This document shows, piece after piece, positions 13,622 to 62,814 of a stretch of DNA of 64,000 nucleotides (position 1 is the first letter of the stretch; every line of letters begins with the position of its first letter). Origin of the DNA: a virus (taxonomy: Duplodnaviria > Heunggongvirae > Uroviricota > Caudoviricetes); IMG/VR virus record IMGVR_UViG_2654587772_000002; one strand, written 5' to 3'. Both the position numbers and the translations under genes were made by a program. A model generated the notes under the pieces. The model had not been told where the DNA came from. It made no database searches and was given only the letters and a program-made list of their open reading frames with translations.

Positions 13622-14021
13622 GATACCGCCATTGATAAGGCACTCCCTCTACAGACACCTCAATATCGTCAATGAACGGTTCCGCTTCCAGGACCTGGAT
13701 ATCTTCAGCCAGGGCATTCATATCGCAATCGTAATAATGCTCTTTACCGCAATGTTTACAGGTGTAGGTGAATGTCTCGACCGGTGTTTCACGGGAGCCG
13801 GTAAATATCCACCATAACGCGGTAATCCGGTCCTGCGCCGTCCATGTCAGGGGATCATGTTTCGCGGGTTCAGCCAGCAAGGCTTTTAAATACGCCGTTG
13901 TCTGTTGTTCTTGTTCCTCCGGTGTTATCGAGTTGAAACGCATCGCATCAGCAATATTTGGCTGACGGAACTGGATCAATTCAGTTGGCCGCGATGGTAG
14001 CGGGAAAAGAGGTAAAAGCAT
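13611..14021 (-). CDS. hypothetical protein (position suggests tail assembly chaperone)
   Basis: 136 aa, located just upstream of the tape-measure remnant. Confidence 0.3.
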   Translation of the reverse strand: MLLPLFPLPSRPTELIQFRQPNIADAMRFNSITPEEQEQQTTAYLKALLAEPAKHDPLTWTAQDRITALWWIFTGSRETPVETFTYTCKHCGKEHYYDCDMNALAEDIQVLEAEPFIDDIEVSVEGVPYQWRYRAA

Positions 14022-14192
14022 CCTTGCTCCTTAATTCAAAGAGAAAAGCTAAAGCCCAGAAGGGAAGCCAAAGAACTTGAGGATTGGTTAAACGTGCTGT
14101 GCAATGCGAAGGTCATTGGGAATGACTTAAATTCCGTAACCTGATCCCGCGCATAGGTGACATCTCCGGTAGTGACCGGGAATACCGTCATC

Positions 14193-14648
14193 TCATTTTC
14201 CAGGTTTGGTTAAACCGGAGGACAGCAACCGATAAATACGCACATTGAGCAAATATTTAGATGGTATGTTCCCGGTGCCGTCAGGATTGATCACCCGACT
14301 TTTTGCCGTCTTAAACCAGTCCAAAACGAGGCCATCAACGGTATCCCTGACCATCATTGTTATCTGCCCTGGCGAACGCTCCGTTGGCTGAAGGATATTC
14401 CCTCCGCCGATTTTAATCGTTTCATATTCGATGCTGTAATCGTGGTAGGTAATGTCTTTAGCAAAGAAGTCTGCCCCCTCCAGACCATCAACTTCGACAG
14501 AGAACTGCCATCCTTGCGCGAACAGCATTTTGTTCATGATGATTGACGTCAGCTTACCAACTTCCCGTTCACCAACGCCGGAGCCAAATAATGTCGTCGT
14601 TAATGCCGAAGATACATAAGACTTTACTGAAGCAACATTAAGCCCCAT
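14193..14648 (-). CDS. putative virion / tail protein
   Basis: 151-aa ORF in the tail gene block; no confident motif. Confidence 0.3.
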   Translation of the reverse strand: MGLNVASVKSYVSSALTTTLFGSGVGEREVGKLTSIIMNKMLFAQGWQFSVEVDGLEGADFFAKDITYHDYSIEYETIKIGGGNILQPTERSPGQITMMVRDTVDGLVLDWFKTAKSRVINPDGTGNIPSKYLLNVRIYRLLSSGLTKPGK

Positions 14649-14658
14649 ATCAGCCCCC

Positions 14659-15249
<591 letters not shown>

Positions 15250-15369
15250 TTAACCGATTCTACGAGTAGTCATTTGTTCATCGTGTAACAATATTGCCAT
15301 TGGATAAAATAACTACAGCGCCCACAAACGGGCGCATTCTGTACATGACTTGAGATATATTATGTTGCA

Positions 15370-16152
15370 TTAAAGCTTTTCAAGATAATCAGCCAAGCCT
15401 TTCGCATTATCGGCATAGTATTTTGTTGCATTTACTATTATTGACTCATAATACGATTTGCATTCTTTCTTCCATGGAGTGCACGAATTTATTTTTTCCA
15501 TATCGTTTTTATTTTTAGAAATACCAACAAGCATAATGTACCCGATAAATCTTGTTGTCAACGCGCCAATCGGTAGCGTTCTATTCTCGGCTACTGTCTT
15601 TATTAAATTATCTTTATATTGAGGAATGAAATAGTTACCAACATATTCCAGATTTGCTTCAATAGGATTAAGATAGAATGAGCAATACTGAAAAGTGGGA
15701 ATTTGTCTAAATTTAACACCAGAACATAATGAATAAATTTCTTGTTCTTTTGTTAGTTCTTTTACTATGTGACTGTTGTCAGTCGTATCTTCTAATCTTA
15801 TATAGTTCAAAGACGATTTTGCTTGTCCTGGGCTTACAAGCTCAATAACAGGATGCCCATTAGACAATGTTATTCTTTCGATCTTACCCCGAATTCTAGA
15901 AGTTTGACTCCATTCATCTAAGGCTGCTATTTCATTTTTCTTGAATGAATCAACAATATCTGATGGCAAGCTAAAAACAGTAGCTTTCGTATTCATAGTA
16001 TATGCAAGCGAAGCAGATACCATATAGTTTCTGACTAAATTATAGTCCTTCTCGGAAACAGAATACTCATTAGGAATAGCTATTGAATTTGCAAATGAAT
16101 AGCTGCTAACAAAAGCAAACGGCAACAATAGTTTAAACATTAATTTTTTCAC
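15370..16152 (-). CDS. secreted hypothetical protein (moron)
   Basis: 260 aa; signal peptide MKKLMFKLLLPFAFVSSYSFA; AT-rich coding sequence unlike its neighbours. Confidence 0.55.
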   Translation of the reverse strand: MKKLMFKLLLPFAFVSSYSFANSIAIPNEYSVSEKDYNLVRNYMVSASLAYTMNTKATVFSLPSDIVDSFKKNEIAALDEWSQTSRIRGKIERITLSNGHPVIELVSPGQAKSSLNYIRLEDTTDNSHIVKELTKEQEIYSLCSGVKFRQIPTFQYCSFYLNPIEANLEYVGNYFIPQYKDNLIKTVAENRTLPIGALTTRFIGYIMLVGISKNKNDMEKINSCTPWKKECKSYYESIIVNATKYYADNAKGLADYLEKL

Positions 16153-16181
16153 TTATCACTATCCTTCGAATATCTTTACAT

Positions 16182-16818
16182 TTAAAGCCCGTCTTTGCAG
16201 AGACTAGTTGCTGTAGCGGTAAGTTGTGAAACAGGAATGTTAGGGCTGTCCCGTTTCATTAGAGCTAACTTAGTTTCAACACATTTTTTTATTCCTGGGG
16301 TCAAATTATCAGTATCATTTGCATCAGCACTCCCTAAAGCCCTCCGCTCAAGCGCACCTTGAGTATTTTGAGTGCGCATGCCACGCGCATTCAGAAATTG
16401 TTCGCTATTTATATAGCTACTTAAAGATTTTCCCTGATCTTCTTTGCGAATTTTTCCATTAGCCACTAATACAGCCCAACTAGGAATCATCATATCTGGT
16501 GCAGTTTCACAATACGCTACCATCTGATTAAAAGCCGAACGGTTATATTCATTAAGATTAGGATTAAGAAATTTCGAATAATACATTTTTGCAGCATCAT
16601 CTGTCGCAACCTTATACATTTCTTGCTGAACCATTGCTTCAGACAAACTTAAGCGCGTCATATCATTCTGGAGAGCTTTTTTCATCTTGCCGTCTTGACT
16701 GACAGTGAAACCGTAAACGTGCCCAAGGTATTTCGTGTAGTCGGTACAAATCTCCTTTACACTTGATGCTGCATTAACAGTCCCAGTCATAAATAATAAC
16801 GGTAGTAATAGTTTTCTC
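16182..16818 (-). CDS. secreted hypothetical protein (moron)
   Basis: signal peptide MRKLLLPLLFMTGTVNA from the internal ATG; AT-rich; Cys-containing. Confidence 0.55.
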
Positions 16819-16915
16819 ATTATAACCTCACCTGCCTTATAACTCATTTAGGGTACATATTTTCGCCTTTAAAAAAAGAGGTTATTAGATCCAATTGTGC
16901 ATTCATTAAACAAGC

Positions 16916-16932
16916 AATGCTCTAATAAATTT
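16916..16932 (+). promoter_or_regulatory. C1-repressor-operator-like site (AATGCTCTAATAAATTT)
   Basis: matches the 17-bp P1 C1 operator consensus ATTGCTCTAATAAATTT with one mismatch; lies upstream of the antirepressor region. Confidence 0.45.
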
Positions 16933-17246
16933 GTATTTTTAAGTCACGAATGCTATCTTTGCGCATCATATTGACCTTTTAATCGTTCAGGCTTATATTT
17001 CCGCTGTCGTAGCAAATTCTGCGACCGGGTTTAGCAGCCTGAATGATTGTGCGGACAGCCGCAGATATCCGATATTGCGGTATTTTTGTGTCCGTAAAAC
17101 CGCGTTACGCCCAAATTATGGTGGGGCGTGATGGGGAGGCTTCGGCCTGCTGGTTTCACAATCGCCAGTCTGCTAACCCCGTCACGTCCTGCCACCTGTT
17201 TAGCAGCGGGTAGCAGGTTGTTAAACCTGATTGTGAGGCCGTAACT

Positions 17247-17468
17247 ATGGTTAATGCCAATCCTTGCGCACGCCCAGAATTCATCTGGCGTTTCTATTCC
17301 TGTAAAAAACACCACTATCACTTCGTTATCGCAGCAACTGAAGACGAAGCACGCTCTCAATTGCCTGATGGCCCCTGCATTTTTACTGCCCGTTTTTCAA
17401 CTAACTCGCGCAATTCACTTAGTTACTGGAACCTCCCCTTCTCTGCCGACGTTCAGGGGGGTTTATGA
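17247..17468 (+). CDS. small protein overlapping the antirepressor start (icd-like position)
   Basis: 73-aa ORF ending in a 4-nt overlap with the ant start; assignment is by position only. Confidence 0.3.
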   Translation: MVNANPCARPEFIWRFYSCKKHHYHFVIAATEDEARSQLPDGPCIFTARFSTNSRNSLSYWNLPFSADVQGGL

Positions 17469-18856
17469 AAAAACCTCTCGTCACCCGTAATGAAATAGCC
17501 GAAGCGATCGCCCTGCATACAACCTGTATGCCGACACGGGAGATCCCCGGCGCAATTGCCAACTATTTCATGATAACCAGGCGTTTTTATACCCGAACAG
17601 ATAAGGCTGTGATCAACAAGCTACTGATAGCCGAGATCAGGGATTATTTGATTGAACAAGGACGTCTACGTTACGCAACAGTGGCAGCAGAAATGAGAAA
17701 GGAGGCACATAGAATGACCGGTAATAATTTAAATGTTGAAAAAACAGTACCTGTTACGTCAGCTACGCCAGCACCAGCCGTGAATGTCATCCCCAACACC
17801 GGAGACACAATCGACAGCCAAACATTGTTGAAGATGGTCAATGAGGCACGTAAGTTATGTGGAGAACCAGAGGTTAGAAACAATAAATTCATCGAAAAAA
17901 TACTCGATGAACTTGAAGGTGAATTTTACACAAAAAGTGCAAAATCCCATGGCACAAGGGCCGGGCGCTCTTTTGAGGTCATAACCATGACCTATAAACA
18001 AGCCCTGCGAGTCGCCGCACGCGAATCAAAAGCGGTCCGCCGTTCGCTACATACCATGATTCAGTCATTGGAACCTATAAATGTAGAAAATCAGCCTGAT
18101 GAAATTCCCGTTCTGGAATGGCAGGGAGTACGCGTCGTGACAACCGAGACTCTTGCTAGAGGGTATGGCACTACACCTATTCGTATTCAGCAGAACTACA
18201 ATCGCAATGAAGAACGATTTGTAGAGGGTAAACACTTCTTTAAAATCAAAGGAGATGAGATAAAAAGTTTGCGACTATCTTTTAGCGAGTTGCAAATTTC
18301 CCCCAAGACCAGATCCTTAATACTCTGGACCGAACGCGGAGCGGCACGCATGTCTAAGATCGTAGACACAGAGCAAGCGTGGGCATTCTTTGAAAAACTG
18401 GAAGACAGCTACTTCCGGCAAAAAGAACAGCAACCGGTCACAATCCCCCAAACATTACCAGAAGCTCTACGCCTGGCTGCCGAGTTGGCAGAGCAGAAAA
18501 TGCAGTTGGAACAACAGCTGGTGGCCGCAGCCCCTAAAGTAGATTTTGCCGACCGGGTATCAGTGGCTAATGGAATCCTGATCGGGAACTTTGCAAAGGT
18601 CGTTGGACTTAAGCAAAACGCCCTTTTCTCATGGTTGCGCCAGAACGGCATTCTCATGGCTTTTGGTGCGCGCAAAAACGTACCGCGCCAGCAGTACATT
18701 AACGCCGGGTATTTCACGGTGAAAGAAGTGGTGCTGGATGATGAAAATGGCTACCAGATACGGCTGACGCCCCAATTAACGGGTAAAGGCCAGCAGTGGT
18801 TAACTCGCAAGCTACTTGATGCTGGTTTGTTAAAACCAGTGGCGTCCTTGTCTTAA
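17465..18856 (+). CDS. ant: phage antirepressor (ORF6N-type N domain plus KilAC C-terminal domain)
   Basis: 463 aa; C-terminal APKVDFADRVSVANGILIGNFAKVVGL...GYFTVKEV block typical of KilAC antirepressors. Confidence 0.75.
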   Translation: MKKPLVTRNEIAEAIALHTTCMPTREIPGAIANYFMITRRFYTRTDKAVINKLLIAEIRDYLIEQGRLRYATVAAEMRKEAHRMTGNNLNVEKTVPVTSATPAPAVNVIPNTGDTIDSQTLLKMVNEARKLCGEPEVRNNKFIEKILDELEGEFYTKSAKSHGTRAGRSFEVITMTYKQALRVAARESKAVRRSLHTMIQSLEPINVENQPDEIPVLEWQGVRVVTTETLARGYGTTPIRIQQNYNRNEERFVEGKHFFKIKGDEIKSLRLSFSELQISPKTRSLILWTERGAARMSKIVDTEQAWAFFEKLEDSYFRQKEQQPVTIPQTLPEALRLAAELAEQKMQLEQQLVAAAPKVDFADRVSVANGILIGNFAKVVGLKQNALFSWLRQNGILMAFGARKNVPRQQYINAGYFTVKEVVLDDENGYQIRLTPQLTGKGQQWLTRKLLDAGLLKPVASLS

Positions 18857-19094
18857 CGTATTCAGACCAGGATTTGCCATAAATTACAGGCATGTGTACG
18901 ATATGCCCAACCCTGTTTTTCAGGGGAGGCGCAACGTTATGCGGGGGTTATGAACTCCTGGATGCGTAGCCTCCAGACAGAAAAAACCCTCGCTACAACG
19001 TTGCATGGAGGCAACCAGCGAGGGCATTCCTTATGTCTGAACAACAAGAGGATAGCCGCAAGCAGTTGCTGTTGCAAGTATGCGGAGCTTCGTA

Positions 19095-19211
19095 ATGACT
19101 CTTCAAAAAGCTTGCAAGTGGATTGTGACCAACATCATTGTTCCTGTCATCATCGGAGCTTCAAGTTCTGTGTTGGCATCAGTGATTGCCTCACTTCTCC
19201 ACATTGCATAA
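19095..19211 (+). CDS. candidate small hydrophobic peptide (38 aa)
   Basis: MTLQKACKWIVTNIIVPVIIGASSSVLASVIASLLHIA; terminator about 55 nt downstream; speculative. Confidence 0.2.
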   Translation: MTLQKACKWIVTNIIVPVIIGASSSVLASVIASLLHIA

Positions 19212-19265
19212 CAACATTGAAGGGCGTTAGTTCGCAGTATAACAGCAGCGCGTTGCGCCCGAACA

Positions 19266-19300
19266 GGCCACAGGGTAAAACCTGTGGCCTTTTTCGTTTT
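19266..19300 (+). terminator. rho-independent terminator
   Basis: hairpin GGCCACAGG-GTAAAA-CCTGTGGCC followed by TTTTT. Confidence 0.5.
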
Positions 19301-19409
19301 ATCCAGCCACAAATCCACATTGAAAAACGCCTTATACAAAAAAACCTGCCAGCAAACTGGCAGGTTTCTGAGCAGATCGTCCAACCCGATCTGGATCGAG
19401 TCAGAAAAA

Positions 19410-19495: not shown

Positions 19496-20344
19496 ATGCA
19501 ACAAACATTCAATGCGGATATGAATATATCAAACCTTCATCAAAATGTCGATCCTTCAACCACCCTGCCTGTTATTTGTGGTGTTGAAATTACGACCGAC
19601 CGCGCTGGCCGTTATAACCTTAATGCTCTACACAGAGCGAGCGGACTCGGTGCCCATAAAGCGCCAGCTCAATGGCTAAGAACGCTCTCAGCTAAACAGC
19701 TCATCGAAGAGCTTGAAAAAGAAACTATGCAGAATTGCATAGTTTCGTTCGAAGGCCGTGGCGGCGGCACTTTTGCCCATGAATTGCTCGCAGTGGAGTA
19801 CGCTGGTTGGATTTCTCCCGCGTTTCGGCTGAAGGTAAACCAGACATTTATCGACTATCGAGCTGGAAGATTACAACCTGCTATTCCGAAGAGCCTCCCA
19901 GAAGCTCTCCGTTTGGCTGCCGACCTGGCAGAGCAAAAGCAACGGCTGGAGCAAAAAATGCTGATGGATGCACCTAAAGTCGAATTCGCCGAACGCGTTG
20001 CTACCGCCAGCGGGGTTCTAATCGGCAACTATGCCAAAGTGCTCGGCCTGGGCCAAAACTATCTCTTCACCTGGTTGCGTGATAACGGAATTCTGATCGC
20101 AACCGGTGAACGCAGGAACGTCCCCAAACAAGAATACATATCCCGTGGGTATTTCACCCTTAAAGAAACCGTGATCGATACAAGCAATGGAAGCAGGATT
20201 TCTTTCACGACTCGTATAACCGGCAAAGGTCAGCAGTGGCTGATGAAGCGATTGCTTGATGCTGGTGTGCTGGTGTGCTGGTACCTGTCGCGGCAACGCG
20301 CTAACAGACGTAGTAAGAACCACCAGCATTGTAATGCTGGCTAA
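19496..20344 (+). CDS. kilA: KilA-N domain protein with KilAC C-terminal domain
   Basis: 282 aa; N-terminal KilA-N-like region; C-terminal block paralogous to the C-terminus of the 463-aa antirepressor. Confidence 0.65.
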   Translation: MQQTFNADMNISNLHQNVDPSTTLPVICGVEITTDRAGRYNLNALHRASGLGAHKAPAQWLRTLSAKQLIEELEKETMQNCIVSFEGRGGGTFAHELLAVEYAGWISPAFRLKVNQTFIDYRAGRLQPAIPKSLPEALRLAADLAEQKQRLEQKMLMDAPKVEFAERVATASGVLIGNYAKVLGLGQNYLFTWLRDNGILIATGERRNVPKQEYISRGYFTLKETVIDTSNGSRISFTTRITGKGQQWLMKRLLDAGVLVCWYLSRQRANRRSKNHQHCNAG

Positions 20345-56022: not shown

Positions 56023-59000
56023 CTATATTTTTCCGCCTACGCCTTTAAACTTCTCAATAAACGAGACGATTTTCTGGAAAACTGCCTGTTTTTTCGTTTT
56101 ATATTGCGGATTTAACGGACTAAGTTTTGGTAATGTTTCGTTTAATTCTGTGCCATTTTCGGTGGCGTATTCGCGTTTTAAAGACGTGCGAATATAGCGT
56201 TTTGCTGCATCTTCATTGAGATTTTCTTCTTTTATCAATGCTTCTGCTTCACGTTGCTGTTCGCGTTGAGCAAACGTAAAGAATGCGTCAATGATGCTGG
56301 CTTTGTCCGGTAAATCATCCAGGTTCGTTTGCTGAATAAAATCGACCACCAGGCCCTCTTTAGCACGGTTCCCTAGGCTTGAACGAATTAAGCGTTTGAC
56401 CTCTTCGATCATTTCGCCCTTGCCTTTATTTTGTCTGTTGTGTTCGAAAATAAGTCCAAGGATATAATCCAGGTTTATTTCCTGAGACTTCAGCAAATCG
56501 ACCTCAAAAACTACGTCATCCCAGTCAGTGGTTGATTTCTCTTTTTTCTCAGCTTCTTTCTCACGGCGCTGCCAGTCGCGAATATCGTTATAGGCAGAAC
56601 GATAATCCTGAATCTTGCGATCAGCAGGGAGACGAATTGTTTGCAATTCAGCGAACTTTTCATCATCCACATAATGTTCTGCTTTGAATTTTTCTACCGC
56701 AACAGGATCGCTAAGATCGATTTGTTGCAGGGCTTTTAGCGTGGCAAATTCATCATAGTTTTGCAGGATGTTCTCGGCACGCAGGTATTCGCCAAACAGT
56801 TTAACGAAGTCTTTCTTCTCTTTTTCACTTTCAATACTGGTAGGGTCAGGGAACCGTTGTTCCAGTTCTGAAACTACTGTCATGAAGCCGCGTTTAGCTT
56901 CACCTGTAGCAGCATCAGTAAAGCCTTCCATATACTCTGTATAACTCTTTTCTAACACCACATTTTTGGTGTTTTTGTCACCAAACAGCGTTATGGCATC
57001 AATAGTTGAGCGTTCCAGATCCCGGAAAGTGACGATATTACCGAAGGTTTTAGTTGCATCATAAATACGGTTGGTGCGGGAAAATGCCTGCATCAGGCCG
57101 TGAAAACGCAAGTTTTTATCGACGAATAGCGTGTTCAATGTTGGAGCATCGAAGCCGGTTAAAAACATCCCCACGACAATTAGCAGATCGATATCCTGAT
57201 TTTTAACCCGCTGGGCTAAATCACGATAGTAGTTCTGAAAACCGTTACTGTCGGTGCTAAAGTTAGTTTTAAAATGGCTGTTATATTCACGAATTGCAGC
57301 GTCCAGAAACTCTTTAGCACTGCTGTCCATTGCGCTGGTATCAAAAGTTTCATCGGAAATTTCACCAATGGCATTTTGTTCTTCATTGGCGGCAAAGGAG
57401 AAGATTGTCGCAATACGCAGCGGTTTATAGGTAGCCGATTTATTAGCGGCTTCTTCTTGTAACCGTTTAAACGTCGCATAATAGGCTTTCGCGGCATCCA
57501 CGCTGCTCACTGCCAACATAGCATTAAAACCTTTTGAGCCAGGGAAGGTACGGTGAGTTTTCTGGCGGAAATTATTCAGAATATATTGCGTGATTTCCTG
57601 AATACGCATAGGATGAAGAAACGCCTGCTGATTTTCAGCCGCACTTAGTTTTTTCTCGTCAGTTTCTGTCTCTAAAGACTTAAACTGTGGCCGCACATCG
57701 TTGTAGTCCACCTTGAATTTGAGCACTTTTTCGTCACGAATCGCATCGGTAATTACATACGAATGCAATTCACGACCAAATACGCTGGCGGTTGTTTCTG
57801 AGCCTAAGGCGTTTTCCGGGAAAATAGGGGTGCCGGTAAAACCAAACTGATAATAGCGTTTGAATTTCTTCTTCAGGTTTTTCTGCGCTTCTCCAAACTG
57901 GCTGCGGTGGCATTCATCAAATATGAACACTACTTGCTGATTATATACAGGCAGGTCGCTTTCTGCTTTCATCAGGTTATTGAGTTTCTGAATAGTAGTG
58001 ACGATAATTTTGTTATCGTCCTTATCCAGATTTCGTTTAAGGCCTGCGGTATTTTCCGAGCCGTTGACGCTGTCTGGCGAAAAACGCTGATATTCCTTCA
58101 TGGTCTGGTAATCGAGGTCTTTTCTGTCGACCACAAAGAAGACTTTATCAATAAAGTCCAGCTCTGTTGCCAGACGCGCGGCTTTAAAGCTGGTAAGGGT
58201 TTTACCAGAACCGGTAGTGTGCCAGATAAAGCCACCGCTTTCGGGGTTAGACCAGTTTTTCGCTTTATAGGAGCTGTTGATTTTCCATAAGATTCGTTCG
58301 GTGGCGGCAATCTGGTACGGTCGCATCACCAGTAGCGTCTGACTACTGTCAAAAACGCTGTAGTTCACCAGAACATTCAGCAGAGTATGTTTCTGGAAAA
58401 AGGTAGCGGTAAAGTCTTTGAGGTCTTTAATCAGCGTGTTGTCTGATTTCGCCCAGTTCATGGTGAAGTCAAAACTGTTTTTATCGCGCTTTGTCGTGTT
58501 GGCAAAATAACGGGTATCGGTGCCGTTAGAAATGACAAACAGTTGCAGATACTTAAACAGGGAATTTTCGCTGTTAAAACTCTCTTTACTGTAACGATGT
58601 ATCTGGTTGAAAGCCTCACGAATCGCCACCCCGCGTTTTTTTAGTTCGATTTGCACCAGCGGTAAACCATTAACCAGGATCGTGACGTCATAACGGTTAG
58701 CATGAGAACCCGTCTGTTCAAACTGCTGGATAATCTGCACCTTATTGCGCATGAGATTCTTTTTATCTATCAAATAGATGTTCTCAAGACGCTCGTCATC
58801 AAAAATAAAGTCGCAAATATAGTCGATATGGATTTTACGGGTCTTATCCAGAATGCCATCACTCGGGTTGTCCAGATACTGCTCCGTGAAACGCCGCCAT
58901 TCGCTGTCATTAAACACCACACCATTGAGGTTCTGAAGCTGTTCCCGAACGTTGGCCAGCATCGCCGACTGTGATTTTACGGGTATAAATTCATAGCCCT

Positions 59001-59139
59001 GATTTCGCAGGTCCTGAATCAGTTCCCGTTCCAGGTCCGATTCACTCTGATAGCTGTCGCCTGTTTGCTCAGCTTTGATGTACTTATCAAGAACGATAAA
59101 GTTATTGGATTCAGCAATGGTGTGTGTCTGATGAGTCAT
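56023..59139 (-). CDS. hsdR: type I restriction enzyme R subunit
   Basis: 1038 aa; helicase motifs (TGSGKT, DECH), N-terminal nuclease region. Confidence 0.9.
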
Positions 59140-59261
59140 AGCGCATCCTTTGTGCCGTCTGGCAAGGGCCGGAAGGGGGTTAAGGGTGACTTCCAGCGTG
59201 TAAAAAAATAGCCTATATACTGACCGGGTGTTAAGGTGGCCCGGTCGGTAGCAATGGTCAA

Positions 59262-60473
59262 TTAATTACTGACAGTTTCAGGTTTCGGGAAACTGAACAG
59301 TAAATCACGGTAGTACTCGTATTGTTTCTGGCGCAACTCGATTTCACGCGGGAGACCTTCGGTGATGGAGTTGGTCAGGGTGTCGAACTTATCGAGGATA
59401 AAGGCAATTTTTTGTTGCTCATCAATCGATGGTAAAGGAATAGATAAACCATCAATGTTATTTGCTTTAAGATAACCTTGCCCTGAATTGTTTTTTACTG
59501 ACTTAAAGTAAAATTTCATTCTTGGTGAGTCGAAGAAATGCAGAAAATATCTAGGGTGAAGTAATTCCTCATTCAACCTGATTAGGTACATGTTTTGACC
59601 GTAAAAATCAGGATCGAGACATTTTACTCGAGCAATCTCACCAATAGTACCAATCATGCTTATAAGAAAGTCACCTTTCAAGATCGGTCTATTTTTGGAG
59701 ATGCTCAAAAAATCGTCCCGGGAAATATGCTTAACTCTTTCAAAATCGATGTTCCCACCACTAATATTCTTTGAAGTGACATATGGAATTTCACCATTAT
59801 CATCAAACTTCGGAGTTGCGGGCATAATCCAAAATTTATCTACTAGCACCTCCTCCAAAGTCTTCCACTCAACCTCACCCTCTTTAAAACTCAACAACTG
59901 GTCGCGATAATAGTTGTACTGTTTTTTACGCATGTTAAGCTCAGCGGTAAGCTCAGCGGTAAGTGCAGTAAATTTATCCAGAATCCGAACGATTTCAGAC
60001 TGGATGGCAAGGGATTTTTCCGGATTATCCGGGCAGGGGATTGGGATTTTTTTTTGAGAATAATTACTAATCCATTGGCGTTTATGGTCTCCCTCTGCGA
60101 ATTCACTTGGTAATGTATTGAGCCAATAGTAAACATATTTCAGTAAGGTTTTATTATTATCACATGATGTAACCATTTTCATGGCCGATGATTTTGCCTT
60201 AAAGTCAAAATCCACCCATTTATTAGCGGTGGTGAAATCATCAAAAATTATTACAGGTGCCTTTGATGCCTGGTAAATACCATGAGTCTCATTTGTGTAT
60301 CCAAGAATAAATGTTTTTCCGGCAGTAAGAACCGGTATGGTATATGTGTCGTGATAATCTTTTGCTTTTACCAAATACTTTGTTGGCTGTTCATATTTGG
60401 TTATTTCCCCCAATGGCAACCACTCAACTTCAACCCCATCCAGCAATTTTTCCAGATAACTCAACTCGCTCAT
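59262..60473 (-). CDS. hsdS: type I restriction-modification specificity subunit
   Basis: 403 aa; two target-recognition domains separated by conserved repeats; overlaps the hsdM stop. Confidence 0.85.
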
Positions 60474-62032
60474 TTCTGCACCTCGCAGCCTTCAATTTCA
60501 GCCACAATCGCATCAATATCTTTACGCAACTGGTCGATTTTGCTGACCGTGGTTTTCAGCTCAGCATTTAGCTCAGCAATATCGATAGTTTCGCGGTTAT
60601 CTTTCACTTCTACATAGCTGCTCACTGACAGGTTATAGTCATTCGCGACAACGGCCTCAAACGCGACAGATTTTGCCAGATGGGCAACATCTTCCTTGCT
60701 GGAAAATACCTGCATAATTTTTTCGATATGGGCATCGGTCAGGATGTTGTTGTTAGTCTCTTTTTTGAACAGTTCGCTGGCGTCAATAAACTGAACTTTG
60801 GTATCCGTTTTATGTTTAGACAGCACCAGAATATTTACGGCAATGGTGGTGCCAAAGAACAGGTTCGGTGCCAGTGAAATCACGGTTTCGACATAGTTAT
60901 TGTCAACCAGATACTGACGGATTTTCTGCTCCGCTCCGCCACGGTAAAAAATGCCCGGGAAGCAGACAATCGCAGCACGACCTTTGGCAGAAAGATAGTT
61001 CAGCGCATGTAATACAAACGCAAAGTCAGCTTTGGATTTGGGGGCCAGAACGCCAGCCGGGGCAAAACGTTCATCGTTAATCAGCGTCGGGTCATCGCTG
61101 CCAATCCATTTCACCGAATACGGCGGGTTAGAAACGATGGCATCAAACGGTTTTTCATCTCTGAAGTGCGGCTCAGTCAGTGTATTACCCAGCTTGATAT
61201 CAAACTTGTCGTAGTTGATGTTGTGCAAAAACATGTTCATACGCGCCAGGTTATAGGTCGTATGGTTGATCTCCTGACCAAAAAAGCCTTCTTCGATGAT
61301 ATGGTCATCAAACTGTTTTTTAGCCTGCAACAACAGCGAACCGGAACCTGCTGCCGGGTCGTAGATTTTGTTAACGTGGGTCTGGCCGTGCATTGCCAGT
61401 TGTGCAATCAGCTTAGAGACGTGCTGCGGTGTAAAGAACTCGCCGCCGGACTTACCGGCATTCGCCGCATAGTTAGAAATCAGGAACTCATAGGCATCAC
61501 CGAACAGGTCAATCTGATGTTCGTTGAAGTCACCAAGGTTTAACCCTTCAACCCCTTTCAGAACCGCAGCCAGGCGGGCATTTTTATCCTTAACGGTGTT
61601 ACCCAGGCGGTTACTGGTGGTATCGAAATCAGCAAACAAACCTTTGATGTCAGCTTCTGAAGGATAACCGTAAGCAGAACTTTCGATAGCAACGAAGATG
61701 CTGTTTAAATCTGCATTCAGTCTGTCATTGGTATTTGCTTTCGCCGCTACGTTGCAGAAAAGCTGACTTGGGTAGATGAAGTAGCCTTTGGTTTTGATGG
61801 CATCGTCTTTAATGTCATCAGTAATTACGCTGTCATCCAGTTTCGCATAACAGATACTGCCATCACCGGCTTCAATATAGCTGGAAAAATTTTCGCTGAT
61901 AAAACGGTAGAAAAGTGCGCCCAGAACGTATTGCTTAAAATCCCATCCATCGACCGAACCCCTGACATCGTTAGCAATTTGCCAGATTTGACGATGAAGC
62001 TCTGCACGTTGTTGAATACTTGTCATTTTCAT
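60470..62032 (-). CDS. hsdM: type I restriction-modification methyltransferase subunit
   Basis: 520 aa; AdoMet motif [10 protein letters not shown] and catalytic NPPY. Confidence 0.9.
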
Positions 62033-62177
62033 CCACTTATTTCAGGCTTATGTAATTGGATGTGATTCTACAACAACTTGGTGGCTTTAACAGTTCGGAC
62101 ATTAGGCTATGAATGACCTGCCTAGAGTTTTGTTAAGCCGCAAAGTGCTGGCGCTTTATGCCTGTGAAGTTTATAAT

Positions 62178-62199
62178 TGTGTACACATAACGAGTACAC
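62178..62199 (+). promoter_or_regulatory. phd-doc operator-like palindromes
   Basis: TGTGTACACA and GAGTACAC immediately upstream of phd. Confidence 0.45.
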
Positions 62200-62208
62200 G
62201 AGGTGTTT

Positions 62209-62430
62209 ATGCAATCCATTAACTTCCGTACCGCGCGCGGCAACCTTTCTGAAGTGCTCAACAATGTTGAGGCCGGGGAAGAGGTTGAAATCACCCGCAG
62301 AGGCCGTGAGCCAGCAGTAATTGTCAGCAAGGCTACTTTCGAAGCCTACAAAAAAGCGGCGCTGGATGCTGAATTTGCATCCCTGTTTGACACCCTGGAC
62401 TCCACCAACAAGGAACTGGTTAACCGATAA
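62209..62430 (+). CDS. phd: antitoxin Phd
   Basis: 73 aa from ATG; [32 protein letters not shown] matches P1 Phd. Confidence 0.9.
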
Positions 62431-62810
62431 TGAGGCATATATCACCGGAAGAACTTATTGCGCTTCATGATGCGAATATAAGCCGCTACGGCGGCCTGCC
62501 TGGCATGTCAGATCCGGGCAGGGCAGAGGCCATTATCGGGAGAGTTCAGGCCAGAGTTGCCTACGAAGAGATCACCGACCTTTTCGAAGTCTCCGCCACC
62601 TACCTGGTGGCTACAGCGAGAGGGCATATATTCAATGATGCCAATAAGCGTACCGCGCTAAACAGTGCGCTGCTATTTCTACGCCGTAACGGGGTGCAGG
62701 TATTTGATTCACCTGAACTGGCAGACCTTACCGTAGGCGCTGCGACTGGCGAGATATCTGTATCTTCTGTCGCCGACTCGTTACGTAGATTGTATGGTTC
62801 TGCGGAGTAG
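62430..62810 (+). CDS. doc: toxin Doc (Fic-fold)
   Basis: 126 aa; overlaps the phd stop; HIFNDANKR Fic-like motif. Confidence 0.9.
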
Positions 62811-62814
62811 ATTA

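Follow-up and report, generated by a model that had tools for sequence, protein, structure and literature searches.

A probable, divergent ldr/rdl-like type I toxin-antitoxin module in the ant-kilA interval of a P1-like element

Introduction

Why does a gene for a small hydrophobic peptide, followed by a terminator of its own, stand between ant and kilA of a P1-like element? The locus lies in a 64,000-nt stretch of Caudoviricetes DNA (IMG/VR record IMGVR_UViG_2654587772_000002; this whole stretch is referred to below as the window). The original prediction, made from the sequence, compared the layout with type I toxin-antitoxin systems and with the kil-type small membrane peptides of phages.

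The long direct repeat (LDR) units of Escherichia coli K-12, among them ldrD/rdlD, are type I toxin-antitoxin units reportedly described by Kawano and colleagues in 2002. The toxicity of ldr/rdl, its repression by Rdl, the proposal of a leader ORF (ldrX) and a hok-like organization have all been published (PMC4147584, PMC8594479); the ldrX leader ORF of ldrD was proposed by Gerdes and Wagner by analogy with mok (PMC4147584, PMC8594479). Peptides of the Fst/Ldr superfamily carry a conserved Trp after the transmembrane helix, and then a charged C-terminus (Fozo 2010, Weaver 2020; PMC2887945, PMC7472228). In the literature, ldr/rdl systems are chromosomal and vertically inherited, without plasmid homologues or horizontal spread (PMC2887945, PMC5367252).

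Results

An insertion relative to P1

Over the stretch compared, the window and E. coli ST2747 CP007393.1 are 100% identical. The first part of the window, from position 1 to ~17,000, consists of chromosomal DNA and lambdoid tail genes, the last of which is a truncated gpJ. The P1-like genome starts at ~17,004 and contains c4 RNA (17114-17199; Rfam, 69.6 bits), icd, ant, kilA, repL, parAB, repA, dam, tRNAs, ban, hsdMSR and phd/doc. The location of the peptide gene between ant and kilA was borne out, with ant ending at 18856 and kilA beginning at 19496. In P1, sequence matching 19338 onward begins 6 nt after the ant stop codon. Compared with P1, the window thus has 481 bp inserted at 18857-19337 (Table 1). 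From 19338 the window continues as in P1, with the ant terminator hairpin (plus strand, 19344-19366) and then PkilA/Op53. Judged by this comparison, the cassette was inserted after the ant stop codon and ahead of the ant terminator/PkilA region.

The cassette was present in none of 22 P1-type phage records, P1 itself included. In PLSDB it was found at 98-100% identity on 21 plasmids of E. coli, E. albertii and Salmonella, i.e. on 21 of the 510 P1-like plasmids of that database, counted as those with the adjacent PkilA/kilA segment.

At the junction of the two parts of the window (~17004-17006, region 13749-17120), the truncated lambdoid gpJ abuts the P1-like immI region; either the chromosome is joined here to a P1-like prophage, or the join arose in the assembly of CP007393.1. 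Only model positions 12-53 are covered by the Rfam c4-a1b1 match, which an isrK-like match (43.7 bits, below GA 50) overlaps; the c4 promoters and operator of P1 thus seem to be absent. Ant of the window has 463 aa, compared to 347 aa for P1 Ant1, and over the last ~130 residues it is closely similar to the C-terminus of the adjoining KilA; both proteins are annotated as KilAC-domain antirepressors. The tRNA cluster (40725-42478) comprises four genes: Asn, Thr, Ser (41353-41439) and a CAT-anticodon tRNA annotated as Ile. P1 has three tRNA genes, and tRNA-Ser may be an addition relative to P1. A type I restriction-modification operon, hsdM, hsdS and hsdR (56026-62813), adjoins phd/doc of the P1-like element.

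Table 1. Coordinates of the cassette, its predicted elements and the neighbouring genes within the window.
Feature	Position	Strand	Basis or detail
ant	17465-18856		P1-like part
Cassette, 481 bp, missing from P1, P7 and SJ46	18857-19337	.	Sequence comparison
Predicted sigma-70 promoter of toxin mRNA	18874-18902	+	TTGCCA-17-TACGAT; inferred TSS near 18909
Predicted toxin mRNA, ~390 nt	18909-19300	+	MFE -160.9 kcal/mol, z=-7.1
5′ block GGCGCAACG	18928-18936	+	Closing (fold-back) helix with 3′ block; fold prediction
Predicted Rdl-like antisense RNA, ~64 nt	18979-19042	-	17-nt 5′ tail, hairpin 19025-18987, U6 18986-18981
Candidate leader ORF, ldrX/mok-like, MSEQQEDSRKQLLLQVCGAS followed by stop	19033-19095	+	SD-like GAGGG 19020-19024, 8 nt upstream
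Predicted antisense-RNA promoter	19049-19077	-	TTGCAA 19077-19072, 17-nt spacer, TATCCT 19054-19049; TSS near 19042
Putative toxin ORF, 38 aa, MTLQKACKWIVTNIIVPVIIGASSSVLASVIASLLHIA	19095-19211	+	SD GGAG 19084-19087, 7-nt spacing
93-aa antisense ORF, TTG start	19103-19384	-	Judged spurious, outside the system
3′ block CGTTGCGCC	19251-19259	+	Partner of 5′ block; fold prediction
Intrinsic terminator of toxin mRNA	19265-19300	+	Stem-loop 19265-19290 + TTTTCGTTTT
kilA	19496-20344		P1-like part

Homology to LDR units

The first divergent copies of the cassette were obtained in a blastn 'distant' search. A 4.5-kb ColE1-type plasmid of Pantoea agglomerans carries a 37-aa ORF (MMFVNACKWIGNIILQIAIGVAGSVLASVILAHFHLA) in the same flanks, and in plasmids of Lelliottia and K. 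aerogenes these flanks enclose a different ORF of 30 aa. In a MAFFT alignment with LDR-D (ldrD/rdlD) of E. coli K-12, the leader, the rdl hairpin, the block ATAGCCGC..GTTG..TTGCAA, the 3′ block TGCGCCCG and the terminator all align. The block ATAGCCGC..GTTG..TTGCAA is common to LDR-D and to the Pantoea, Lelliottia and L169 copies, which were found independently of it. A genome-wide scan with this block collected >80 LDR-type units, whose peptides fall into three classes: (i) the canonical 35-aa Ldr, (ii) a 30-aa peptide of the pattern MTF+EAL..GP.VVAL.+HFF.F, and (iii) the 'ACKW' class, to which the peptide of the window belongs.

An nhmmer profile was built from 62 LDR units of enterobacterial chromosomes, comprising the canonical Ldr and 30-aa classes and no member of the ACKW class. 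Over the whole window it gave a single match, 18884-19303 (E=1.1e-36). Without the collecting motif, matches were obtained to 18882-19050 (E=6.9e-16) and to 19210-19302 (E=1e-13). With the collecting block deleted or not, these matches therefore establish, at the DNA level, that 18884-19303 is homologous to an LDR unit, and this end-to-end homology supports the type I toxin-antitoxin alternative of the original prediction. Because a blastn 'distant' search started from LDR-D failed to find the P1-type cassette, a profile was required. The cassette UTRs are 61-69% identical to those of classes 1 and 2, with the ORF at background (~55%). The 30-aa class bridges canonical ldr/rdl and the cassette, because its antisense RNAs score 47-73 bits against Rfam rdlD.

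The 30-aa class (in fuller form, MTF+EAL..VVTS..GP.VVAL.+HFF.F) forms LDR-like tandem repeats in Kluyvera, Atlantibacter, Lelliottia and Scandinavium (L044 1033/1485, L070, L046, L006 2184-2276, L007 2083-2175 and others) and occurs on the Lelliottia and K. aerogenes plasmids as well; the rdlD scores given above come from antisense RNAs checked at four loci of this class. The one class-2 peptide tested had no match to Pfam Ldr_toxin. Canonical Ldr loci, ~80% identical to LDR-D and annotated 'toxin Ldr family protein', occur in PLSDB on a few E. coli plasmids (28-385 kb), so the published chromosome-only view does not strictly hold.

The ACKW class contains four peptide lineages, namely the P1 type, P0002, Pantoea p33.1_4 and a metagenome type (L164/L165). 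The P0002 peptide (MMLLKACKWIVTTVIVPTIVGVAGSMIASILLAHFHLA) comes from contigs that also encode a PriCT_2/DUF5906 primase and a resolvase. The four lineages are 30-40% apart in DNA, with the ORF, the SD, the promoter-like blocks, the terminators and the long-range helices intact in all of them. A metagenome scan with the peptide alignment retrieved only two lineages, both already known.

The putative toxin ORF and its peptide

The 38-aa ORF that had drawn attention to the locus is present at 19095-19211, where it starts at an internal ATG of the listed 43-aa ORF 19080-19211. The start at 19095 is likely because the upstream ATG, at 19080, is GTG in most relatives. Position 19081 is A in this copy and G in most relatives; this A creates the ATG at 19080, so the listed ORF has 43 aa. 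The peptide had been described as mostly one transmembrane helix, with which its Kyte-Doolittle hydropathy is consistent (GRAVY 1.44; best 19-aa window, 2.28).

Lack of conservation in relatives had been named as a point against the gene. Four lineages, 53-54% identical, retain an unbroken ORF in which a single codon indel keeps the frame; its dN/dS was 0.29, 0.40 and 0.20 in three comparisons. The variants among P1-type copies comprise three synonymous changes and one I->V replacement.

The peptide gave no match to Pfam Ldr_toxin (PF13940) at E<=10, compared to 93.7 bits for the LdrD control, and scored only 7-10 bits against home-made Ldr profiles. In an ungapped hhalign alignment, P17 and G21 fell on the Ldr PxxxG motif (P~1e-3, probability 22%). 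Neither the peptide nor the 93-aa antisense ORF matched Pfam, NCBIfam or PADLOC, and the PHROGs hit (E=0.12) was insignificant; with P1 itself devoid of the cassette, the suggested likeness to phage kil-type peptides found no support. A word-indexed protein search with the peptide returned one near-identical match, and an exhaustive phmmer search of 1.84 billion representatives returned two matches, one of which was P0002. By tblastn, there was no match among phages, and only near-identical copies were found among plasmids.

The Trp after the helix and the charged C-terminus of the Fst/Ldr superfamily are absent from the peptide. Its C-terminus reads SLLHIA, the net charge of the last 10 residues is 0, and K5, K8 and W9 are all N-terminal. 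Membrane orientation can be judged from charges by the positive-inside rule, and the N-terminal charges, read by this rule, suggest an orientation opposite to that of LdrA/LdrD. The transmembrane helix contains a P/D/S/TxxxG motif, which reads P17-V-I-I-G21 in the P1-type peptide and P17-T-I-V-G21 in that of P0002; in the Pantoea types QxxxG stands in its place. The ORF may have originated either by divergence from Ldr or by replacement.

A predicted antisense RNA opposite the leader

The hairpin with an A-run reported at 18983-19027 was confirmed as A6 (18981-18986) and a stem at 18987-19024, with an energy of -26.9 kcal/mol (z=-4.4). On the minus strand it reads as a hairpin followed by U6, which in our model is the terminator of a predicted sRNA. 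The predicted antitoxin is not antisense to the ORF itself: the sRNA is placed opposite the 5′ leader (19042 to ~18979), like rdlD. The minus strand at 19042-18981 matches Rfam rdlD (RF01813) over the full length of the model (1-66) with 21.1 bits, below GA 50, and the predicted antisense TSS at ~19042 is the first base of this alignment. The candidate sRNA lies 53-114 nt upstream of the toxin ATG, compared to 49-112 nt upstream of the ldrD ATG for rdlD. It is clear of the toxin SD and ATG, and is predicted to have a promoter and a terminator of its own. The promoter agrees with the consensus at 8/12 positions, below the scan cut-off.

The covariation count refers to the outer stem of the sRNA only: the cross-class alignment of the inner stem is out of register, so the outer stem alone was counted. 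One of its pairs is CG in 29, UA in 6 and UG in 3 of 38 sequences, and cells with both sides changed numbered 8, compared to 2.0±1.2 in shuffles. The L169 hairpin contains a C·A mismatch on the mRNA strand, where the antisense strand has a U·G pair, which suggests that selection acts on the antisense transcript.

An assignment to the Hok family was considered and rejected: there was no Pfam match, and Rfam RF01794 ('sok antitoxin') scored 16.8 bits against a GA of 59 on the sense (plus) strand of the cassette, at 18943-19082. Sub-threshold sense-strand matches to RF01794, ending at the AUG, occur in ldr-type leaders, with 24-35 bits in canonical and 30-aa units (L046, L070, L044, L006, L004). 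They hint that hok and ldr leaders are related or that the Rfam seed is mixed.

An orphan Rdl-like hairpin, 82% identical to 18974-19039 of the window, was observed in Salmonella Newport plasmids (L008 2001-2062). No toxin ORF accompanies this hairpin, which is located immediately downstream of a convergent gene, with a KilAC antirepressor gene and a RelE/ParE pair nearby. It could represent a remnant, or else a locus with an antitoxin alone.

The predicted toxin mRNA and the candidate leader ORF

The predicted toxin promoter (9/12 consensus) aligned with the TAGAAT -10 region of LDR-D. Both promoters (9/12 and 8/12) are weak matches, and in generic scans one terminator was found compared to 1.3 by chance, so that promoter and terminator scans alone are not above chance; the layout exceeds chance because of the homology and the conservation in divergent copies. 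Judged from the alignments, promoter-like and terminator elements are present on both strands at the ldrD/rdlD positions. The ORF had been said to be followed by its own terminator after ~55 nt, and the stem-loop indeed begins 53 nt past the stop codon. The lengths of the leader, ORF and 3′ UTR are 186, 117 and 91 nt, compared to 183, 108 and 86 nt in ldrD (LDR-D).

In the predicted fold of the 391-nt mRNA, GGCGCAACG (18928-18936) is paired with CGUUGCGCC (19251-19259), just ahead of the terminator. The energy of the 5′-3′ duplex is -24.5 kcal/mol, compared to -9.7±2.7 with shuffled partners. This closure is also predicted for LDR-D and most other LDR units and is kept in the four class-3 lineages, where the closing helix is the first helix of the RNAalifold consensus. 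The same consensus includes a 13-bp helix of a leader block with the 3′ UTR, containing two compensatory pairs, and a helix joining the ACKW codons with the H-x-A codons; peptide conservation at these codons could in part reflect the RNA helix. Compensatory changes were also found in the terminator stem of class-3 copies. Sequestration of the SD by the 3′ UTR was seen in the single-sequence and 4-sequence folds and was absent from the 5-sequence consensus. A test of cognate versus non-cognate 5′-3′ pairing gave a mixed result: class-3 5′ ends combined with class 1/2 3′ ends gave -17 vs -22 kcal/mol, while the reverse non-cognate combination paired no worse.

The candidate leader ORF comprises 20 codons, and its TAA stop overlaps the toxin ATG (TAATG). 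Its SD-like GAGGG, located in the 3′ arm of the hairpin, and its start codon both lie within the predicted target of the antisense RNA. Of 81 units, 76 have a start codon at this position, which is conserved across all three peptide classes, and from it the frame remains open at least as far as the toxin ATG. Classes 1 and 2 have TTG here; every class-3 copy seen has ATG or GTG. The leader ORF of the Pantoea-type and L169 copies runs into the toxin ORF in a different reading frame. Neither the leader frame nor its peptide is conserved between classes, and the probability of an open 20-codon frame by chance is ~0.4. On the sequence comparison, the candidate ORF at 19033 corresponds to the proposed ldrX.

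Disrupted copies

In several plasmids and viral contigs, IS1 is inserted at 18886/18887, between the -35 and -10 of the predicted toxin promoter. Four plasmids carry a second IS at 19076/19077, between the leader/antitoxin and the toxin SD; it is annotated with an integrase-core-domain protein and sits between the antisense promoter and the toxin SD. The two insertions are independent (L009, L010, L003), with both present in L003. In one copy the SD is changed from GGAG to GGAT. The IS insertions fit either counter-selection of toxin expression or simple dispensability. Several copies are broken by IS elements, so the cassette is dispensable, which counts against its reading as an ldr/rdl module.

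Discussion

We estimate at about three in four the probability that 18884-19303 is a divergent ldr/rdl (LDR) type I toxin-antitoxin module, carried as a mobile cassette of ~450-480 bp and working by the mechanism proposed here. This mechanism is based on homology with ldr/rdl and analogy with hok/mok/sok, and it is by such analogy that we infer expression, toxicity and function of the cassette. A stable mRNA of ~390 nt would be transcribed from the promoter at 18874-18902 and closed by pairing of the 5′ and 3′ blocks. In some predicted folds the toxin SD and AUG are paired with downstream sequence, and the closed mRNA would be poorly translatable. A short-lived antisense RNA of ~64 nt would pair exactly over the SD and AUG of the 20-codon leader ORF. 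As the leader stop overlaps the toxin ATG, toxin translation would depend on, and be coupled to, translation of the leader ORF, and through this coupling the antisense RNA would keep the toxin off. If the element were lost or transcription stopped, the antisense RNA would decay first and the peptide would be made; it would enter the inner membrane as a single helix, and the cell would be arrested or killed. On P1-like and small plasmids the role of the module would likely be post-segregational killing or plasmid competition, and possibly abortive infection or phage exclusion. Post-segregational killing has been reported to be absent for chromosomal ldrD/rdlD (PMC5367252), and this is a point against the module reading.

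The cassette resembles ldrD/rdlD in the homologous DNA of its leader, antisense region, 3′ UTR and terminator, in unit size and UTR lengths, in the placing of the predicted sRNA, which faces the 5′ leader equally far from the ATG, in the leader-ORF start codon within the sRNA target, and in 5′-3′ complementarity. Its peptide, like Ldr, begins with MTL and has P17/G21 (PxxxG) at the Ldr positions of an ungapped alignment. However, this peptide has 38 rather than 35 aa and no Pfam match, and it lacks the C-terminal Trp and basic cluster, K5, K8 and W9 being N-terminal; the sRNA hairpin has no apical extension (21 bits), and the cassette is single-copy on phage-plasmids and small plasmids instead of a tandem chromosomal repeat. 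With hok/mok/sok of plasmid R1 it shares, by prediction, a stable folded mRNA, 5′-3′ closure, a leader-ORF TIR that is the antisense target, and coupling, as well as a plasmid carrier for which post-segregational killing is plausible; in the Pantoea type, as with mok, the overlap of the leader ORF with the toxin ORF is out of frame. The peptide, in contrast, is unrelated to Hok in sequence. The 30-aa class (Kluyvera, Atlantibacter, Lelliottia, K. aerogenes plasmid) has the same RNA scaffold, UTRs 63-69% identical to those of the cassette, and a peptide likewise outside Pfam Ldr_toxin, but this peptide is a different one with C-terminal charges, and its loci are mostly chromosomal tandem repeats.

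The same homology would be seen if the cassette were a decaying, non-functional LDR remnant riding on P1-like plasmids, in which toxin and antitoxin are no longer made. Such decay would agree with IS1 in the toxin promoter of several copies, the second IS between leader and ORF in others, the altered SD, the failure of the peptide and sRNA to reach Pfam/Rfam thresholds, and the occurrence in only 21 of 510 P1-like plasmids. Nevertheless, we regard a remnant as improbable, for divergence of this extent would not leave one intact, and the ORF, SD, promoter-like blocks, terminators and long-range helices are all preserved in four lineages 30-40% apart in DNA, with dN/dS <1 and compensatory changes in stems. 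It is less probable still that the peptide is a phage moron product of the immI (c4-icd-ant) operon, serving superinfection exclusion or a kil-like function without antisense control. The ant-kilA interval is a regulatory hot spot, and read-through from ant into the cassette is possible because no terminator separates them; yet the same cassette with its flanking RNA elements occurs on the 4.5-kb ColE1-type Pantoea plasmid and on non-P1 contigs, the homology to ldr/rdl units runs from end to end, and the family databases returned nothing significant for the peptide.

We attach equally little weight to a transcriptional insulator made of back-to-back terminators between the ant operon and PkilA, with the ORF incidental to it. 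Tandem plus-strand terminators (19265-19300 and the P1 ant terminator) and one on the minus strand are indeed found, but P1 has the ant terminator without the cassette, and the conserved ORF, the leader ORF, the promoters and the occurrence on unrelated plasmids would be left unexplained. The least credible proposal, to which we give hardly any probability, is that the real gene is the 93-aa (or a longer) ORF on the minus strand. The antisense ORF pointed out originally does exist (19103-19384, TTG start), the site bears a minus-strand 'hypothetical protein' in the PGAP annotation of some plasmids, and the frame is open in the Pantoea copy as well. Against this, the matching RefSeq record leaves it unannotated, its start lies in P1 sequence outside the cassette, the frame has a stop in L164, its protein sequence is not conserved, and it has no family match. 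Open antisense frames are common opposite hydrophobic ORFs, and the 93-aa ORF is probably spurious and not a gene.

Returning to the ldr/rdl module, a wider view can be put forward as speculation that we think rather unlikely to hold: the ldr/rdl RNA scaffold would be a portable chassis with interchangeable toxins, moved horizontally on plasmids and phage-plasmids; the ACKW peptide would be a new toxin class, with charges and topology inverted relative to Ldr; and the module would give P1-like elements post-segregational killing or phage exclusion, unlike chromosomal ldrD/rdlD.

The ldr/rdl RNA scaffold is found here on P1-like phage-plasmids, on a ColE1-type Pantoea plasmid and on other small elements, with a peptide that escapes family models and was missed wholly by genome annotation; DNA and RNA profile searches can find type I loci that peptide searches miss. 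If functional, the cassette would be a natural test of whether the leader-ORF/antisense mechanism of ldr-type units works as in hok/mok/sok, and would mean that type I modules are in fact moved by mobile elements. Some P1-like plasmids, a group that often carries resistance genes, would then also gain a function in addiction or exclusion.
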